Origin: a virus
IMG/VR virus record: IMGVR_UViG_3300009506_000203
Reading direction: 5' to 3' (one strand)
Length of the DNA stretch: 22,410 nt
The position numbers and the translations under genes are program-made. Shown in pieces: positions 3,173 through 20,852 of this stretch. Each line of letters opens with the position of its first letter. Position 1 is the first letter of the stretch. Under the pieces are notes generated by a model. It did not search any database, was not told the origin of the DNA, and worked only from the letters and a program-made list of their open reading frames with translations.

Positions 3173-3756
3173 AGCAACGCGTGACGGCCACTGGCGTGGT
3201 CAACTGGGAAGGCACCGACCTCGATCCAGCTCGGGATGAGTTGATCGACGAGCGGTTCTTGCGCCCATCGATCGTGCGCGAGTTCATCCGTGCGACTGCA
3301 CCGAGCAAAGATGCTGCGAGCTGCCCCTGCTGTGGCCAGTTCGCCAAGGTCTACAAGCGGCACATCACAGGCGCGATGGCATGTGCTCTGATTCAGATCT
3401 ACCGGTACTACTGGAAGAACGCCTGGACTACCGAGTGGCTGCATGTCCCCGAGTACCTCGCGGCGCAGAAGATGCCCGCCAAGGTCAAAGCGGGTTGGCA
3501 CGGTGGAGATTGGTCGAAGCTCCGCTTCTGGCAGCTCATCGAGCCGAAGGACGACGAGCGCGCGGATGGTTCTCCTCGGGTCGGCTTCTACCGCATCACT
3601 GACCTCGGTCGGGACTTCGTCGAGCGCAAGATGGAGGTCCCCAAGTACGTCTTCCTCTACGCGAAGACACCGCTCGGGCTCGCGCTGCCCTACATCACCA
3701 TCGAGGACGCGCTCGGCGCTTCGTTTAGCTACAGCTCCTTGATGGACGGCATCTAA
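3169..3756 (+). CDS. hypothetical protein with a CPCCG motif (195 aa)
   Basis: ATG 3169 overlaps stop 3172 (ATGA). The listed ORF 3040..3756 is an upstream extension in the same frame. Confidence 0.5.
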   Translation: MKQRVTATGVVNWEGTDLDPARDELIDERFLRPSIVREFIRATAPSKDAASCPCCGQFAKVYKRHITGAMACALIQIYRYYWKNAWTTEWLHVPEYLAAQKMPAKVKAGWHGGDWSKLRFWQLIEPKDDERADGSPRVGFYRITDLGRDFVERKMEVPKYVFLYAKTPLGLALPYITIEDALGASFSYSSLMDGI

Positions 3757-3811
3757 CGCACCGATTCAACTCCAGTAGCCAGATACCTCACCCGGAAATG
3801 GTATCGCGACG

Positions 3812-3842
3812 TACACTCCGCCAATTGATCGCAGCTGCGATC
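3812..3842 (+). promoter_or_regulatory. -10-like TACACT (3812-3817) followed by palindrome GATCGCAGCTGCGATC (3827-3842, site 1)
   Basis: The 16-bp perfect palindrome lies in the 106-bp gap before gene 3863. The -10-like hexamer ends 9 nt upstream, and GGGGG (the SD) follows the palindrome. Confidence 0.4.
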
Positions 3843-3862
3843 CCATTTTCCAGGGGGTCACT

Positions 3863-4435
3863 ATGTTCCTTTTGCTTGTACTTCTCAGCGCGTTTCTAGC
3901 GCCCATTCAAACAGCGCAGATTCCGACTGGTGGCTCCATGCGCACGAGTCGCGGCATCTCGACGATCTTCGGCTACTACGGTGACCGCTATGGCCGAAGC
4001 CCAACTCGCTGCCTCTACGATGATGACGGCAACAAGCGCCCCGTTGATCCCGAGCACGATATCGGCATCGCGCACCGCGATCTAGACTGTGGCGCGGTCG
4101 TCTACATCACCAACCTGGAGACCGGGCTGTCGATCCGAGCTGTGGTCGTGGATGCAGGACCGTGGGGCGCGATGTCGAAGAACGCCGCTGGCAAGCCGAT
4201 CTGGTACGTCAAAAAGAACACGAATGCTCGGCCAGGCCGCGATGTCTGCCCTTCGAGGAAGTGCCCGGTCGGCCGCTGGCGCGGGATAGCCGACCTCACG
4301 CCCAAAGCGGCTGAGCTGCTCGGCCACGACGGCTGGGCGAAGATCGTCCTCACCTATGACAAGCGCGACCTGCGCAGCTACAAACGGCTTCAGAAGGCCA
4401 AAGAGGCTCACGAGGACAGGAGGAACCAGAGCTGA
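3863..4435 (+). CDS. secreted RlpA-like double-psi beta-barrel (DPBB) protein
   Basis: The N-terminal signal peptide is MFLLLVLLSAFLAPIQTA. YYGDRYGRSPTRCLYDD...IGIAHRDLDCGAVVYITNLETGLSIRAVVVDAGPWG matches the RlpA DPBB pattern. Confidence 0.6.
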   Translation: MFLLLVLLSAFLAPIQTAQIPTGGSMRTSRGISTIFGYYGDRYGRSPTRCLYDDDGNKRPVDPEHDIGIAHRDLDCGAVVYITNLETGLSIRAVVVDAGPWGAMSKNAAGKPIWYVKKNTNARPGRDVCPSRKCPVGRWRGIADLTPKAAELLGHDGWAKIVLTYDKRDLRSYKRLQKAKEAHEDRRNQS

Positions 4436-5114: not shown

Positions 5115-5146
5115 TTTGTCACACCTCTCTGCTAAAAAGAGGGTCC
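5115..5146 (+). promoter_or_regulatory. conserved cassette TTTGTCAC-N5-TCTGCTAA (copy B) plus SD AAAAGAGGG
   Basis: TTGTCAC is at 5116-5122, TCTGCTAA at 5128-5135, and the ATG at 5147. The spacing is the same as in copy A. Confidence 0.4.
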
Positions 5147-6507: not shown

Positions 6508-6517
6508 CCGCTGGTTT

Positions 6518-7204
6518 GTGACGCCCTGGCATGACTGCCGCAAAGCAGCTGCATGCTGCGTCGAGCTGGCACGGCTCGTGATGGCAGCTGCCGCGAAGCC
6601 CGCTGGATTTGGGTCGCAACCGGTGAGGGCAGCCAAACACCGCCGCCAGATGACTGATGCGGAGAGGACGATCGAGTGCGCGCTCCAGTTCGTCGAGAGC
6701 TACATCGACGGGACGATCTGCGAGTGGGCTGTCAACGATGACGACTACGACGGTCGCGATCCAATCGCTTGGATCTATGACGCAGCGGCGGAGTACGCCG
6801 ATGACGCATGGCGCGCGGGGTTTCTGCATGGCGAAGCCGATCGTAGTGCAGCCGGGGACATCGCAAAGCTCGGTTGCACCATTGTGCAGAAGTGGGCCGC
6901 AAACTCTACTGGTGGGGGAGCAGTGCCAAACACGATGGTGCAGCAAGCGGCGCAACTAGCGATCGGAGTCCGCGGGAACGTTGACTACGACGAGGTCTCG
7001 GCCGTCGCCTGTCGATGGCGATTCCACGACGCGCTCGGTGATGACACGGCTCCGACCGAGGAGCTGCGGCTGGCCTTCGAGGCTGCGTGGGACATCGGCC
7101 AGTATGAGTTTGCCTACCAGCTATGCCGACCACTCGACGAGGATATGATAGAAGATGAGCATGGAGATCGAGAGGAAGTTCCTGCTGCCGAGTCTGCCGG
7201 CTGA
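6518..7204 (+). CDS. hypothetical acidic protein; start uncertain (GTG 6518 or ATG 6581)
   Basis: The listed ORF 6314..7204 overlaps the upstream gene, but its first ~65 codons look like off-frame S/R/P-rich sequence. The first plausible starts after stop 6507 are GTG 6518 and ATG 6581. Confidence 0.4.
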   Translation: MTPWHDCRKAAACCVELARLVMAAAAKPAGFGSQPVRAAKHRRQMTDAERTIECALQFVESYIDGTICEWAVNDDDYDGRDPIAWIYDAAAEYADDAWRAGFLHGEADRSAAGDIAKLGCTIVQKWAANSTGGGAVPNTMVQQAAQLAIGVRGNVDYDEVSAVACRWRFHDALGDDTAPTEELRLAFEAAWDIGQYEFAYQLCRPLDEDMIEDEHGDREEVPAAESAG

Positions 7205-7939: not shown

Positions 7940-7965
7940 TGTATCATCGATCGTAGCCACGATCG
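7940..7965 (+). promoter_or_regulatory. TGTATCAT -10-like element followed by palindrome site 3 (GATCGTAGCCACGATC, 7949-7964)
   Basis: The near-palindrome has GATCG/CGATC arms. TATCAT (7942-7947) is immediately upstream. Confidence 0.4.
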
Positions 7966-13086: not shown

Positions 13087-13120
13087 AGCGTGAGTCTACA
13101 CCATGATCGCGGCTGCGATC
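13087..13120 (-). promoter_or_regulatory. palindrome site 2 (GATCGCGGCTGCGATC, 13105-13120) followed by GTGTAGACT promoter
   Basis: The palindrome abuts the stop of the upstream minus gene. On the minus strand, the -10 is 6 nt downstream of the palindrome. Confidence 0.45.
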
Positions 13121-17225: not shown

Positions 17226-17528
17226 CTATCTCCTGCGGGGACCGCTCAGCTTGAGCTTGTGCGTGAGGGGCGGCTGGTTCTGCCACCGCGCTGCAATCGG
17301 TGGAGGCTCCGGGATCGTGATCTCCTCACCGACACGCTGGCAGCTGCATCGCTTGATGATGAGTTTGCAGTTCCGCATCTCGCGGTTGTACTTGACCATG
17401 TCGCGGACCAGCGTCCGCAGCGCGTGCCGTCCACGACGGACGGCTTGCTTCATCGTGTCGCCCTCGACGGTCGTTTCGATGTTCGCTCGCGTCGGCTTGG
17501 TGCCGCAGTAGACGATCCCTTCGTACAT
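17226..17528 (-). CDS. hypothetical protein (100 aa)
   Basis: The internal ATG at 17528 has AGGAG 7 nt upstream. The upstream part of listed ORF 17226..17582 is P/S-rich. Confidence 0.45.
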   Translation of the reverse strand: MYEGIVYCGTKPTRANIETTVEGDTMKQAVRRGRHALRTLVRDMVKYNREMRNCKLIIKRCSCQRVGEEITIPEPPPIAARWQNQPPLTHKLKLSGPRRR

Positions 17529-17536
17529 GTTGGCTC

Positions 17537-18034
17537 CTACCGGTGGTGGCGGCGACCGCTCAGCTCGACTGGTGGCGGACATGCGACCGGGCGGGGCTTG
17601 CGCTCCTTCTTCAACCGCTGGAAGCCAGCAGCGCGCCCTCTCTCAATGCCGGCCTTCACGCCCTTCGTCTGCGGGACCTCACCGAGGATCCGCTCAGGTG
17701 GAATGGGCTCGCTGGTCATGTAGAACTCAGGCAGGTTCGGCGACCGCAACGGCCGGTAGACCGGGCAGTGCTCTTTGGTCCCGACGATCCTCACCTTGAG
17801 GATGGTTAGGGGCTCGTCGGGGCAGCCCTCCCTGACGGCCCGCTTCGCGATGTGCTCTGCGGCGTAGTTCGGGCTCCGCGTGAACCAGATGTCGCCCCGC
17901 GGGCCCTTCCTCAATCCCTGCTTCTTGATGAGGCTCGCACGGAGCTTGTAGGTCCCGTGGTAGCCCACGAAGTCACACTTGCCGAAGGGCTGGACCTCGA
18001 CCCACTTGCCTAGCTGGCGGCGTCGCCTTGACAT
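17537..18034 (-). CDS. minimal Tpt1/KptA-like (NAD-dependent ADP-ribosyl/2'-phosphotransferase fold) protein with a basic C-terminal tail
   Basis: VGYHGTYKLRASLIKKQGLRKGPRGDIWFTRS...EPLTILKV parallels KptA LYHGTASRFLDEIKKQGL...RHYVHLS...SPVILTV. The N-terminal RNA-binding lobe is absent. The start is leaderless at ATG 18034. Confidence 0.4.
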   Translation of the reverse strand: MSRRRRQLGKWVEVQPFGKCDFVGYHGTYKLRASLIKKQGLRKGPRGDIWFTRSPNYAAEHIAKRAVREGCPDEPLTILKVRIVGTKEHCPVYRPLRSPNLPEFYMTSEPIPPERILGEVPQTKGVKAGIERGRAAGFQRLKKERKPRPVACPPPVELSGRRHHR

Positions 18035-18073
18035 GGGCCCCAGTATACACGGTCTCGGATCGCAGCTGTGATC
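18035..18073 (-). promoter_or_regulatory. leaderless promoter GTGTATACT plus palindrome site 4 (GATCGCAGCTGTGATC, 18058-18073)
   Basis: On the minus strand, TATACT ends 7 nt before ATG 18034. The palindrome lies 10 nt upstream of the -10, in the -35 position. Confidence 0.45.
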
Positions 18074-18246
18074 GAGCGGCCTGCGACCGGGCCCGCGGTC
18101 GAACCCGCGGCCGAGACATCGAGACAGCGATACCGGAGCGGGGCCATCCCCCCGAATCGCCACGGGGTGGCGGCACAGTTCTGTGCAGGCCCACTGAGAT
18201 GTGCTCTACTGGTGGCGGAGACGTTCGAGGTGGCTGGGTGCCGCGG

Positions 18247-18284
18247 CGCCCGCCAGGCTGAGCTGGTCTGGCGGGCGTCATTTT
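18247..18284 (+). terminator. intrinsic terminator-like hairpin (10-bp stem CGCCCGCCAG/CTGGCGGGCG, then TCATTTTG)
   Basis: It is a perfect inverted repeat with a T-run, and no plus-strand CDS lies upstream. Confidence 0.45.
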
Positions 18285-18440
18285 GCCGGCCTTCGAGCCG
18301 CCCGAGCTGGCCGCCCCGCGCAGCTCGTGTGGGCTCCTGTCGCGCCCATGGCCGAGCTGGTTGGGCCGCGCGGCCAGCGCCCGCGACGAGGCCACAGAGG
18401 CGCTCCTGGAGCGTCCTGGAGGGCATGCACTATACGCCCG

Positions 18441-18720
18441 ATCGGAAGATCCAATTTTGGGGGTCTAACTACCTTGATCGGGCCCTTTTTCGGCCCGTTT
18501 CCCCTTTGATTACCGGCCTGTGTAGGTGATCGTTACTCAGGGTTAGATCCCTCCCCTACCCCTTATAGATCCGCTGGTACATCTATCAACTTTTCATAGA
18601 TTTACTAGCCGAAACTAAGGAGGGTATAGGGACTTCTAACCTTGTAGATTTCGGGTGTTTTCAGTAGGGATCTCACGGAGATCAAGGTCCCCCTCCAATT
18701 GTTAGTGGTACGGCGCGTCA
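18441..18720. repeat. AT-rich (about 45-50% GC) repeat island
   Basis: It contains TCTAAC twice and GGTTAGA as inverted copies. It has three YRTAGATYY direct repeats, a GATCTC-acg-GAGATC palindrome, and an orphan AAGGAGG. Confidence 0.4.
18479..18505 (+). terminator. hairpin CGGGCC-ctttttc-GGCCCG followed by TTTCCCCTTTGATT
   Basis: It has a 6-bp GC stem and a T-rich tail, at the edge of the AT-rich island. Confidence 0.4.
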
Positions 18721-18796
18721 AAGTTGAAATGTAGTCGTGGCAACGGGTAGTACACTGCAAGAAAGTCACTGGCCCTTGCGGCCGGTGACTGTGAAT

Positions 18797-18868
18797 GTCG
18801 TTGACGTGCTATGTCAACGTCGCACGCTGTCGTTGCACGTCGCGAGCGTGCCGTGTACGATCCCAACG
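18797..18868 (+). promoter_or_regulatory. operator repeats plus a sigma70-like promoter TTGCAC-17-TACGAT for the RHH-AP2 gene
   Basis: Direct repeats TGTCGTTGACGT (18797-18808) and TGTCGTTGCACGT (18829-18841) flank the inverted copy GTCAACG (18813-18819). The -10 at 18856-18861 ends 7 nt before ATG 18869. Confidence 0.45.
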
Positions 18869-19561
18869 ATGCCGCCGAAGCACCGTCTCACGGTTCGCAT
18901 GGAGGATGACCTCTATGACTACCTGCATCAACGCGCGGCACGAAATTTCCGCACGGCACCCGACGAAGTGCAGGCGATCGTATTTGCGCTGAGGGCTGCT
19001 GAGCGCGCTGCGGATACCTCTCCGTTGCCGTCGTCCGAGCTGCCGGCCGTGCTGACGGGCGCTTCCGACGCGGGACCTGAAGCGGAGCCCGAGGCGCCCC
19101 CCGAGCCCGGTGTGACCCACAAGCTCCGCGGCCCGCGCGGCACCCTCTCGGGCTACTTCGGCGTACACCGGTACGGGAAGCGTTGGATAGCCAAGCTGAC
19201 CAGAAATGGTGTAGCGACAAAGGTCGGTGTGTTCGACGACCCGGAGGAAGCTGCCCAAGCCTACGACGACGCCGTCAGGACCAGCGGAACTGGCGGCCGG
19301 CTCAACTTCCCGACGGAGCAGGAGGAAGCTGCACGGTCCAGCGGCGGCTTGGAGACGCTGCCTGACTGGATCCGCGTGCAGGGGCCCGGAGCGTCGGACA
19401 TCCCCCCAGAGCATCTTCCTGAAGCTCTACGGCGTGGTCTCATCGCGTCCGGCGAGATGGACGTGCCGCCAGTCGAGGACCACTACGAGGCGCCCTCTGA
19501 TGAGGACGCGGACCTGGTCCCGGACCCGGACATCGACCCCGATCCGCCCTCCCTCCACTGA
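18869..19561 (+). CDS. ribbon-helix-helix + AP2 DNA-binding domain regulator
   Basis: The N-terminal RLTVRMEDDLYDYLHQRAARNF is an RHH beta-strand and helix. GYFGVHRYGKRWIAKLTRNGVATKVGVFDDPEEAAQAYDDAV is an AP2 domain. The upstream 44 codons of listed ORF 18737..19561 cover the operator repeats. Confidence 0.6.
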   Translation: MPPKHRLTVRMEDDLYDYLHQRAARNFRTAPDEVQAIVFALRAAERAADTSPLPSSELPAVLTGASDAGPEAEPEAPPEPGVTHKLRGPRGTLSGYFGVHRYGKRWIAKLTRNGVATKVGVFDDPEEAAQAYDDAVRTSGTGGRLNFPTEQEEAARSSGGLETLPDWIRVQGPGASDIPPEHLPEALRRGLIASGEMDVPPVEDHYEAPSDEDADLVPDPDIDPDPPSLH

Positions 19562-19570
19562 GGCTGTGTG

Positions 19571-19603
19571 GGCGCCCCTCACTTGGGGGAAGCGAGGGGC
19601 GCC
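19571..19603. terminator. 10-bp GC stem-loop (GGCGCCCCTC/GAGGGGCGCC) between convergent genes
   Basis: It is a perfect inverted repeat with no clear U-tract. It may act as a bidirectional terminator. Confidence 0.4.
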
Positions 19604-19688
19604 GATAGGGTGCTGGGTTTCAGCCACCGGGCGGGCGGCGTTGACTCTTGATCTCTAGCAGAAAGTGTGCGGGGCGCGCAATTGAATT

Positions 19689-19704
19689 GATCGTGTGAGC
19701 GATC
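19689..19704. promoter_or_regulatory. palindrome-family site 5 (GATCGTGTGAGCGATC)
   Basis: It has the GATCG-N6-CGATC arms and overlaps the stop of the minus gene 19703..19951. Confidence 0.3.
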
Positions 19705-20820: not shown

Positions 20821-20852
20821 TTTGTCACAGCGGTGTGACAGACTAGCCGGCC
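20821..20852. promoter_or_regulatory. palindrome TGTCACA-gcgg-TGTGACA in a divergent intergenic region (contains TTTGTCAC)
   Basis: The arms are at 20823-20829 and 20834-20840. Each arm gives a GTGACAnACT -10-like element pointing at the flanking start codons. Confidence 0.35.

Follow-up and report, generated by a model that had tools for sequence, protein, structure and literature searches.

The window analysed here is a 22,410-nt stretch of viral DNA (IMG/VR record IMGVR_UViG_3300009506_000203; overall GC (guanine plus cytosine) content 63%, mean 0.633), in which positions 18035-18868 form a gap between the head of a leftward operon, whose ATG lies at 18034, and a plus-strand gene, here called RHH-AP2, that begins at or near 18869. 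The gap contains no credible gene and is a composite of unequal parts: a promoter and operator at its left edge, a lineage-specific spacer, a conserved element at 18422-18725 (the island) and the edge formed by the RHH-AP2 promoter. The island is the sole part of the gap that is kept in all three related phages available for comparison; it is non-coding, conserves a set of sequence blocks together with the potential to form a palindrome, contains an extremely unstable duplex and lies between promoters that fire outward. We tentatively read it as a protein-bound, strand-opening DNA element, most likely an origin of replication, and it appears to be a new example of a familiar class of cis-acting intergenic elements in phages.

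The lineage is uncultivated, with no cultured representative, and a nucleotide search with 17500-19600 and with 18074-18421 against 50,697 deposited phage genomes returned no match. The same phage has been assembled independently as L244 (run SRR14699975; 1 mismatch in 5,505 bases relative to the window), which shows that neither the unusual spacer nor the island arose in assembly. Protein-anchored searches yielded three distinct and usable relatives in which gene order is kept: L001, an IMG/VR contig of 146,941 bp (L249 and L250 duplicate it exactly); L243, a Logan contig of 23 kb; and L245, a JGI contig of 90.6 kb. The comparisons below rest on these three and the window, L001 being the most distant of the four. 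Exact-pattern searches, of metagenome contigs for GATCTCANGGAGATCAAGG and of genome contigs for GGTTAGATCCCTCC, listed 120 matches each, both patterns being too short for such large collections, and besides the L001 contig none of the listed matches combined any two of the three blocks in a corresponding order and spacing. Partial co-occurrences of blocks in L066 and L104 proved on inspection to be coding sequence, and scans of viral contigs with three block patterns returned only the L001 contig and chance matches within coding sequence.

Base composition changes abruptly within the gap, from 0.685-0.745 GC at 18000-18400 to 0.47-0.53 at 18400-18800, which makes the latter by far the strongest low-GC stretch of the window; the only other 150-nt stretch below 0.52 is at 3751-3900 (0.51). 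Over the AT-rich core of the four loci GC falls to 0.37-0.44, and in each related locus the homologous stretch is the sole one under the GC cut-off used. All six frames of the island carry at least four stops in every one of the four genomes. For the GC-rich half, we used a codon-usage log-odds table trained on the genes of the window (real genes 0.30 +/- 0.16, wrong frames -0.27), by which 18074-18425 scores no higher than 0.03 in any of six frames and the small genes found at the spacer position in the relatives score 0.31-0.39, and an independent gene call on L244 left 18035-18898 empty. Stops, codon log-odds, protein search and gene call thus bear out a preliminary description of this DNA in holding that 18035-18868 is non-coding, and the motifs and the drop in GC that it listed are all where it placed them. 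The best case for a small protein gene hidden in the GC-rich half is the 61-residue open reading frame (ORF) 18283-18468(+), in whose phase third-position GC peaks at 0.86-0.88 (18240-18420), and which starts directly after one hairpin (18247-18284) and ends directly before another (18479-18505). Such a gene is nonetheless very improbable: the codon log-odds of the ORF is 0.07 at best and -0.02 over its full length; its second-position GC of 0.68 is atypical for genes here; no -10 hexamer lies upstream on the plus strand; gene callers do not call it; and its 3' end overlaps a promoter block that is conserved, with a stop in the same frame in L243. It has zero homologues among 1.84 billion representative proteins, and we rejected it on this ground and on that of its log-odds.

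From left to right, the island comprises the following features.

18429..18434, minus strand: TATAGT, the -10 hexamer of a second leftward promoter (P_L2); the window, L243 and L245 all keep it, and a conserved block, CCCCCAAAATTG, lies upstream
18464..18469, plus strand: copy of TCTAAC to the left of the palindrome
18479..18505, plus strand: modest hairpin CGGGCC-N7-GGCCCG (stem 18479-18497) with a U-rich tail
18540..18641, no strand assigned: long imperfect palindrome with about 36 bp paired, from folding against shuffled sequences
18570..18627, no strand assigned: AT-rich centre of the palindrome, in which the arms 18570-18589 and 18593-18612 match at 16/20 positions
18669..18691, no strand assigned: GATCTC-N3-GAGATC (18669-18683) followed by AAGGTCC; all 6 pairs invariant in the four genomes
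18706..18720, no strand assigned: conserved 15-nt block TGGTACRGYGCGTCA, always 14 nt after AAGGTCC

Over 18422-18722 the window and L243 are 70% identical, on a par with the neighbouring genes, and the blocks that survive in comparison with L001 are TCTAAC, CCCYTACCC(C)TT, AAGG(A)GGGTA, CTTCTAAC, GATCTC-N3-GAGATCAAGGTCC and TGGTACRGYGCGTCA. The 14-nt spacer that precedes the last of these retains its length, but not its sequence, in L001. In L243 and L245, P_L2 precedes a small minus-strand gene; both P_L2 and the promoter of RHH-AP2 (P_RHH) fire away from the island, and no -10 hexamer is conserved inside it. Several other candidate signals within the island were considered and set aside: TGGTACGGY as an extended -10, since its decisive last position is C in the window; minus-strand TTGACG as a -35, as no -10 follows in any genome; a G-quadruplex on the G-rich strand, which has only three G-runs in the window; and a genome end or cos site, as the island is interior in contigs of different lengths.

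The most conspicuous part of the island is the palindrome, which measures 100-130 bp across the genomes. Its base is formed by GGTTAGA/TCTAACC and its next tier by CCCCTACCCCTT (18553-18564) against AAGGAGGGTATAGGG (18617-18631), such that the outer tiers are inverted copies of conserved motifs, while the short repeats that bracket the centre are TTCTAAC/GTTAGA and CCCCTACCCC/GGGTAGGG. The AAGGAGG at 18617-18623, previously listed as an orphan, is no ribosome-binding site and turns out to be the G-rich arm of the CCCCTACCCCTT/AAGGAGGGTATAGGG inverted repeat. TCTAAC occurs at 18464 and 18635 and GGTTAGA at 18541-18547, and three of the four TCTAAC/GTTAGA copies of the window fall within 1.3% of its length. 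Copies of YRTAGATYY lie at 18564, 18595 and 18643, with the TAGAT core present four times and once inverted; the proposal that these are iterons does not survive comparison, since they are largely absent from L243 and L245 and the three TTAGAT copies of L001 are at non-corresponding positions. The hairpin at 18479-18497 is a lesser structure (-11.8 kcal/mol; z-scores of -2.4 to -2.8 in the window and L245) that is absent from L243 (z +0.7) and has no equivalent in L001.

At the centre of the palindrome lies the least stable 50-bp duplex of the window, 18578-18627, at +4.7 standard deviations (SD), the runner-up being at +3.2 SD. The palindrome centre is likewise the least stable 50 bp in L243 (+5.5 SD), L245 (+5.0 SD) and L001 (+4.5 SD), where the next sites do not exceed +3.3 SD. 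Its AT-richness is kept in all of them, its length (40-80 nt) and sequence vary, and it is self-complementary in the window (16/20) and in L001. The centre behaves like a DNA unwinding element, in which AT-richness would be expected to persist while length and sequence drift.

Could the palindrome instead be the core of a structured non-coding RNA, a long imperfect hairpin of some 100-130 nt transcribed from one strand? Its fold surpasses that of shuffled sequences in all four genomes (z-scores for plus/minus strands: window -4.5/-4.2, L243 -2.4/-2.3, L245 -2.0/-0.8, L001 -3.0/-5.9), pair counts are above those of shuffles, the reading frames are all closed, and in L001 the minus strand gains 9 G.U pairs (-47.2 versus -22.5 kcal/mol; z -5.9 versus -3.0). 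In an alignment of the four sequences, 92% of cells are paired and 6 pairs have changed on both sides, a number reached by 2 of 500 shuffles, although this test has low power, with a structure derived from the same four sequences and a signal that depends partly on the alignment. Indeed, the apparent compensatory changes in the TACCC/GGGTA helix vanish under an equally good alignment, and the stem substitutions between L243 and L245 are not cleanly compensatory. Moreover, the palindrome of the window is nearly pure Watson-Crick on both strands (35-36 such pairs and 1 G.U), as would be expected for symmetry at the level of DNA; the strand favoured by wobble pairs in L001 is not the same throughout, being the plus strand in the base helix and the minus strand in the centre; and no conserved -10 hexamer is placed to start a transcript. 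The comparison with Rfam that had been suggested gave no family match, with 0 matches at gathering score across the whole window and none for the region even at E up to 10, where the best score was 17 bits against gathering scores of at least 62. We consider an RNA element unlikely.

At the position of TCTAAC, L001 has four tandem CCCCTTCTAAC-like copies, and their spacing of 10-11 bp corresponds to helical phasing. The targets of ParR-, ParG- and omega-type RHH proteins are repeat arrays that precede the genes for these proteins, and an RHH-like gene adjoins the island, so these repeats bring to mind a partition, or centromere-like, site. This reading, raised in the preliminary description, is now very doubtful: the window, L243 and L245 carry the motif singly rather than in arrays, no ParA, ParM or TubZ-type partner was found in the 22 kb, and there is no hint of a plasmid-prophage lifestyle. 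Still harder to credit is the other possibility raised there, a phage attachment site (attP) with arm-type integrase sites, which has in its favour only such general features as an AT-rich core and scattered short repeats. Neither an integrase or other recombinase nor a tRNA or tRNA fragment was detected in the window, and the 14-nt block, when sought in 185,579 genomes, gave scattered matches in unrelated phyla, which were checked solely for co-occurrence with other blocks and showed none.

To the right of the palindrome, GATCTC-N3-GAGATC is notable for a variation that is confined to its 3-nt centre (ACG, GTG, ATA and ATG in the four genomes). It belongs to a cluster of 8 GATC sites in 281 nt, the densest in the window, where about 1 would be expected locally and about 2 at the genome-wide rate; the islands of the relatives have 5-6. 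Across the window as a whole there are 165 GATC sites where base composition predicts 75, and CTAG is strongly avoided (26 occurrences); the GATC excess suggests Dam-type methylation or, at least, freedom from GATC-directed restriction pressure.

The main rival to an origin also turns on these blocks. It is a possibility to be taken seriously, if an unlikely one, that the island serves transcription control and insulation only, its blocks binding either RHH-AP2 or the regulator that recognises GATCGC-N4-GCGATC at operon heads and so setting P_L2 and P_RHH; that its hairpins would further stop read-through between the two transcription units is, in our estimate, possible to the same limited degree. 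In its half-site, GATCTC, the island palindrome does resemble the operator (half-site GATCGC), and the window, L243 and L245 share GATCG half-sites at conserved positions. P_L2 itself accounts for the leftmost 50 conserved nucleotides, the plus strand has a T-run after the large palindrome (TTTTTT in L001, TTTT in L243 and L245), and the window has the look of an early or accessory gene region rich in promoters. On the other hand, the T-run is weak in the window, and the element is kept although no plus-strand gene or promoter lies upstream of it for more than 8 kb in this phage. The invariant blocks are, by our estimate, some 80-145 nt from the RHH-AP2 promoter and at a variable distance, which is unusual for an operator or activator site, and an AT-rich palindrome of 100-130 nt far exceeds what a terminator or an operator needs.

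Taken together, the closed frames, the conservation of blocks with fixed spacing, the 6-3-6 palindrome with its free centre and the outward promoters argue for a protein-bound element that acts as DNA and opens easily, as do the short repeats that flank an AT-rich core whose composition, but not sequence, is kept. From these observations we infer protein binding, strand opening and origin function. In the mechanism that we envisage, the flanking repeats and the 6-3-6 palindrome would be occupied by sequence-specific proteins, for which RHH-AP2, encoded by the neighbouring gene, is the obvious candidate; binding would open or extrude the AT-rich palindrome; and the opened palindrome might then offer an entry point for the replication machinery, making the island the phage origin of replication. 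By analogy, the order of parts - binding repeats, unwinding element, palindrome - is origin-like, and the product of the neighbouring gene has two putative DNA-binding modules, of which AP2 is matched and RHH is sub-threshold. The origin-like, protein-bound reading proposed earlier for the AT-rich half was thus a reasonable one, the half being a real conserved cis element with an origin-like layout; what the present analysis adds is the palindrome of about 100 nt, the GATC cluster, the leaderless promoters on both flanks and the restriction of conservation to 18422-18725.

Several points weigh against an origin. No gene for an initiator, helicase, primase or polymerase was recognised in the 22-kb window, and the RHH assignment of the neighbouring protein is sub-threshold with a structure model of low confidence (predicted local distance difference test score, pLDDT, of 46). 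The island has neither DnaA boxes nor a long-iteron array, the repeats of the window being 6-10 nt long and present in 2-5 copies. GC skew over the 22 kb tracks gene orientation and is uninformative; only four distinct sequences are compared, three of them close kin; and this anatomy would equally suit a role in regulator binding or insulation. An origin is accordingly ranked first only modestly, because there are no long iterons, no DnaA boxes and no recognisable replication gene in 22 kb. It is tempting to speculate further that the island represents a new kind of phage origin or strand-opening site at which RHH-AP2 extrudes a 100-130 bp AT-rich hairpin, or alternatively that this hairpin forms the central part of a phage non-coding RNA not described before, but we regard so novel an outcome as rather improbable.

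To the left of the island lie the spacer and the operon head, with the features below.

18042..18047, minus strand: TATACT, the -10 hexamer of P_L1, which is the promoter of the leftward operon; ATG 18034 follows after 7 nt
18058..18073, no strand assigned: 16-bp palindromic operator GATCGCAGCTGTGATC, covering the -35 position of P_L1
3827-3842, 13105-13120 and 18058-18073, with a degenerate copy at 7949-7964: copies of the operator in the window
L243 3951, 5508 and 8961; L001 2313 and 10927: copies of the operator in relatives, at operon heads
18074..18421, no strand assigned: GC-rich (0.70-0.745), non-coding, lineage-specific spacer, from BLASTN and codon log-odds
18247..18284, plus strand: hairpin 1 (stem 18247-18277), terminator-like and followed by CAUUUUG; specific to the window phage

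Alignment of the window with L243 by BLASTN covers 17549-18073 and 18422-18722 and skips the intervening 348 nt. This spacer has no nucleotide homology to L243 or L001, its sole match being the same phage (L244), and neither tblastn nor a six-frame comparison revealed in it a hidden homologue of the small genes of the relatives. At the corresponding position, L243 (8992-9470) and L245 (8199-8722) have two genes, a leaderless plus-strand gene resembling Kyano_Gp96 and the small minus-strand gene mentioned above, which encodes a membrane-like product and differs between the two by 7 synonymous and 2 non-synonymous changes, and L001 (4513-5320) has a gene for an RF-1/ArfB-like peptidyl-tRNA hydrolase. 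As the relatives hold differing small genes there, 18074-18421 represents a gene-turnover slot that is filled in the window by GC-rich non-coding DNA only; on these alignments, the DNA between the operator at the operon head and the island is a hotspot of gene replacement, and the spacer is without conserved function. The expectation that the gap would be conserved in related phages therefore holds for 18422-18725 but not for 18074-18421.

Hairpin 1 has a stem of 10 perfect bp, or 15-20 when G.U pairs on the plus strand are included, and folds more strongly on that strand (-35.9 kcal/mol, z -3.5) than on the minus strand (z -1.4). The two intrinsic terminators proposed for the plus strand are thus real as hairpins, but a scan for intrinsic terminators returned 0 sites, with neither 18247-18284 nor 18479-18505 passing. 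A small plus-strand RNA, which had been placed at 18075-18285, finds no support: it would lie within the 348-nt segment that has no counterpart in the relatives, no TANNNT -10 hexamer is present on the plus strand in 18035-18469, and the folding of 18074-18290 is ordinary (z -1.3).

At the left edge (18035-18073), the mRNA of the leftward operon is leaderless by virtue of the position of TATACT only 7 nt upstream of ATG 18034. A TANNNT hexamer with an ATG 6-7 nt further on is the layout typical of leaderless mRNAs. It is found at the starts 7636(+), 11509(-), 13086(-), 18034(-), 18869(+) and 19951(-), as well as in L243, and from this recurrence promoter-proximal genes seem as a rule to have leaderless mRNAs, a hint that the host is actinobacterial or similar. 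The operator palindrome, GATCGC-N4-GCGATC, has 7 matches against 0.43 expected, and at 13105 and 18058 in the window, and at 3951 and 8961 in L243, it is followed, 3-10 nt further on, by a GTGTAKACT -10 and a leaderless ATG; this distribution gives it the look of an operator that serves a phage-wide regulon. A second promoter-like motif, TTTGTCACNCC, occurs in 5 copies (1 expected; 1219-1229, 5115-5125, 6515-6525 and 20821-20842), is followed by CTGCTAA upstream of the genes at 1252 and 5147, and forms an inverted pair between the divergent genes 20812(-) and 20853(+).

The right edge of the gap, 18726-18868, has three features.

18764..18790, plus strand: 11-bp hairpin AGTCACTGGCC/GGCCGGTGACT (z -4.4) in non-conserved spacer upstream of the RHH-AP2 promoter
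18799..18819, no strand assigned: inverted repeat CGTTGAC-N7-GTCAACG just upstream of the RHH-AP2 promoter
18833..18871, plus strand: leaderless RHH-AP2 promoter (P_RHH), with -35 TTGCAC, a 17-nt spacer, -10 TACGAT (18856-18861), 7 nt and ATG 18869

The hairpin is not conserved in L243, L245 or L001; the inverted repeat, whose equivalent in L243 reads GTTGTCAAC...TTGACC, is a candidate auto-operator of RHH-AP2. The layout of P_RHH recurs in L243 (TTGACC-17-TAGTGT-7-ATG) and L245 (TTGAAT-17-TACCGT-7-ATG), and with a proximal promoter of its own RHH-AP2 does not need the island for that purpose. Promoter geometry and the conservation of N-terminal beta-strand residues in the relatives favour ATG 18869, which is probably the true start (230 aa) rather than the automatically called 18899 (220 aa). 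At the level of sequence, the AP2/ERF domain of the product is confirmed, with phmmer matches to the plant AP2/ERF structures 7wq5 (E 1.3e-4) and 5wx9 (E 0.003) and a match to the AP2 segment of phrog_99 (E 1.4e-10); the structure model has strands at 99-122 and a helix at 125-139. The product shows no similarity to known initiators. An RHH domain is suggested by the N-terminus, whose top Pfam matches are all RHH but below cut-off (FitA-like_RHH E 0.002, Arc 0.012, TraY 0.1, RHH_4 0.11) and which is modelled with helices at residues 11-26 and 30-49 at a pLDDT below 50. Beyond the stop of RHH-AP2, 19562-19702 is non-coding and about 75% conserved with L001 and L243, and contains a strong GC-rich hairpin without a U-tract (19571-19604; z -4.3 and -6.1 on the two strands) that is probably a bidirectional terminator between convergent genes.

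The proteins encoded in the window are mostly orphans, those recognisable being NUDIX, YpsA/SLOG, CYTH, DUF1653, DUF7768 and a vault-shoulder-like domain; the last of these, the shoulder domain of the major vault protein of eukaryotes (PF11978, E 4e-17), is matched by the product of the first ORF, 74-958, and is unusual in a phage. If the island is an origin, or the docking site of a main regulator, it would provide an experimental handle on uncultivated phages, about 147 kb in size, in which almost no gene has been annotated, and would supply a function for a phage protein whose AP2 domain is not joined to a homing nuclease. Were RHH-AP2 indeed to extrude the hairpin, it would be the first non-nuclease AP2-domain protein of a bacterial virus for which a cis target and a cellular role are defined. 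If the island is merely a regulatory spacer, the yield is smaller: a corrected start for RHH-AP2, a map of leaderless promoters and operators, and a hotspot at which accessory genes are swapped.

How, then, does the island compare with known systems? An RHH-type centromere combines a tandem array with a partition NTPase, and an attP an integrase gene with a core shared with a host attB, often the 3' end of a tRNA; the window has no tandem array, ParA- or ParM-like protein, integrase or tRNA-like sequence. Like intrinsic terminators, 18247-18284 and 18479-18505 have GC-rich stems and short plus-strand T-runs, a similar hairpin being that at 19571-19604, but their short U-tracts are interrupted or run to just 4 U, the plus strand has neither gene nor promoter upstream of them, and they are not conserved across all relatives. 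The early promoters used by the virion RNA polymerase of phage N4 are DNA hairpins with a stem of 5-7 bp and a 3-nt loop with a central purine. As a lead only, GATCTC-N3-GAGATC would fold into a stem of 6 bp with a 3-nt loop, whose central base on the minus strand is a purine in each of the four genomes (G, A, A, A); in contrast to the N4 promoters, however, there is one copy per locus, the flanks are dissimilar, and no giant RNA polymerase of the N4 kind was seen in the available DNA.

Another comparison is with the origins oriF and oriG of phage T4, in which a promoter and a downstream A+T-rich unwinding element form a primer R-loop (PMC3016281). The island shares with them a functional core of about 100 bp, A+T-rich unwinding and a setting among the early or accessory genes of a large phage. 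It differs in that P_L2 and P_RHH point away and its internal TANNNT hexamers are not conserved in the relatives; as no conserved promoter fires into the core, the T4 arrangement does not apply. Origins that combine an AT-rich unwinding element with initiator-binding repeats and a palindrome include those of phage lambda and of iteron plasmids (see the reviews PMC5043065 and PMC4980987). The island has short repeats, an AT-rich melting core and a palindrome in the same order, adjoins a gene for a putative DNA-binding protein, and is non-coding and conserved in position. Its repeats, however, are 6-11 nt long rather than 17-22 nt, with just 2-3 in the window, and neither DnaA boxes nor a recognisable initiator, helicase loader or other replication gene is present nearby. 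Iteron origins have at least 3-4 direct repeats of about 17-22 bp, which the island lacks, the four 10-11 bp repeats of L001 not being conserved, whereas the adjacent AT-rich unwinding element that they also have is found at all four loci (+4.5 to +5.5 SD). The lambda origin sits inside gene O; the island, by contrast, is intergenic.

A further architectural parallel is with the origins oriS and oriL of herpes simplex virus, in which an AT-rich palindrome is placed between divergent promoters and flanked by inverted binding sites. Host domain and proteins are unrelated and the likeness is architectural only, but the palindrome of the island is similarly bracketed, by the inverted CCCCTACCCC and GGGTAGGG, and similarly lies between promoters that fire outward.

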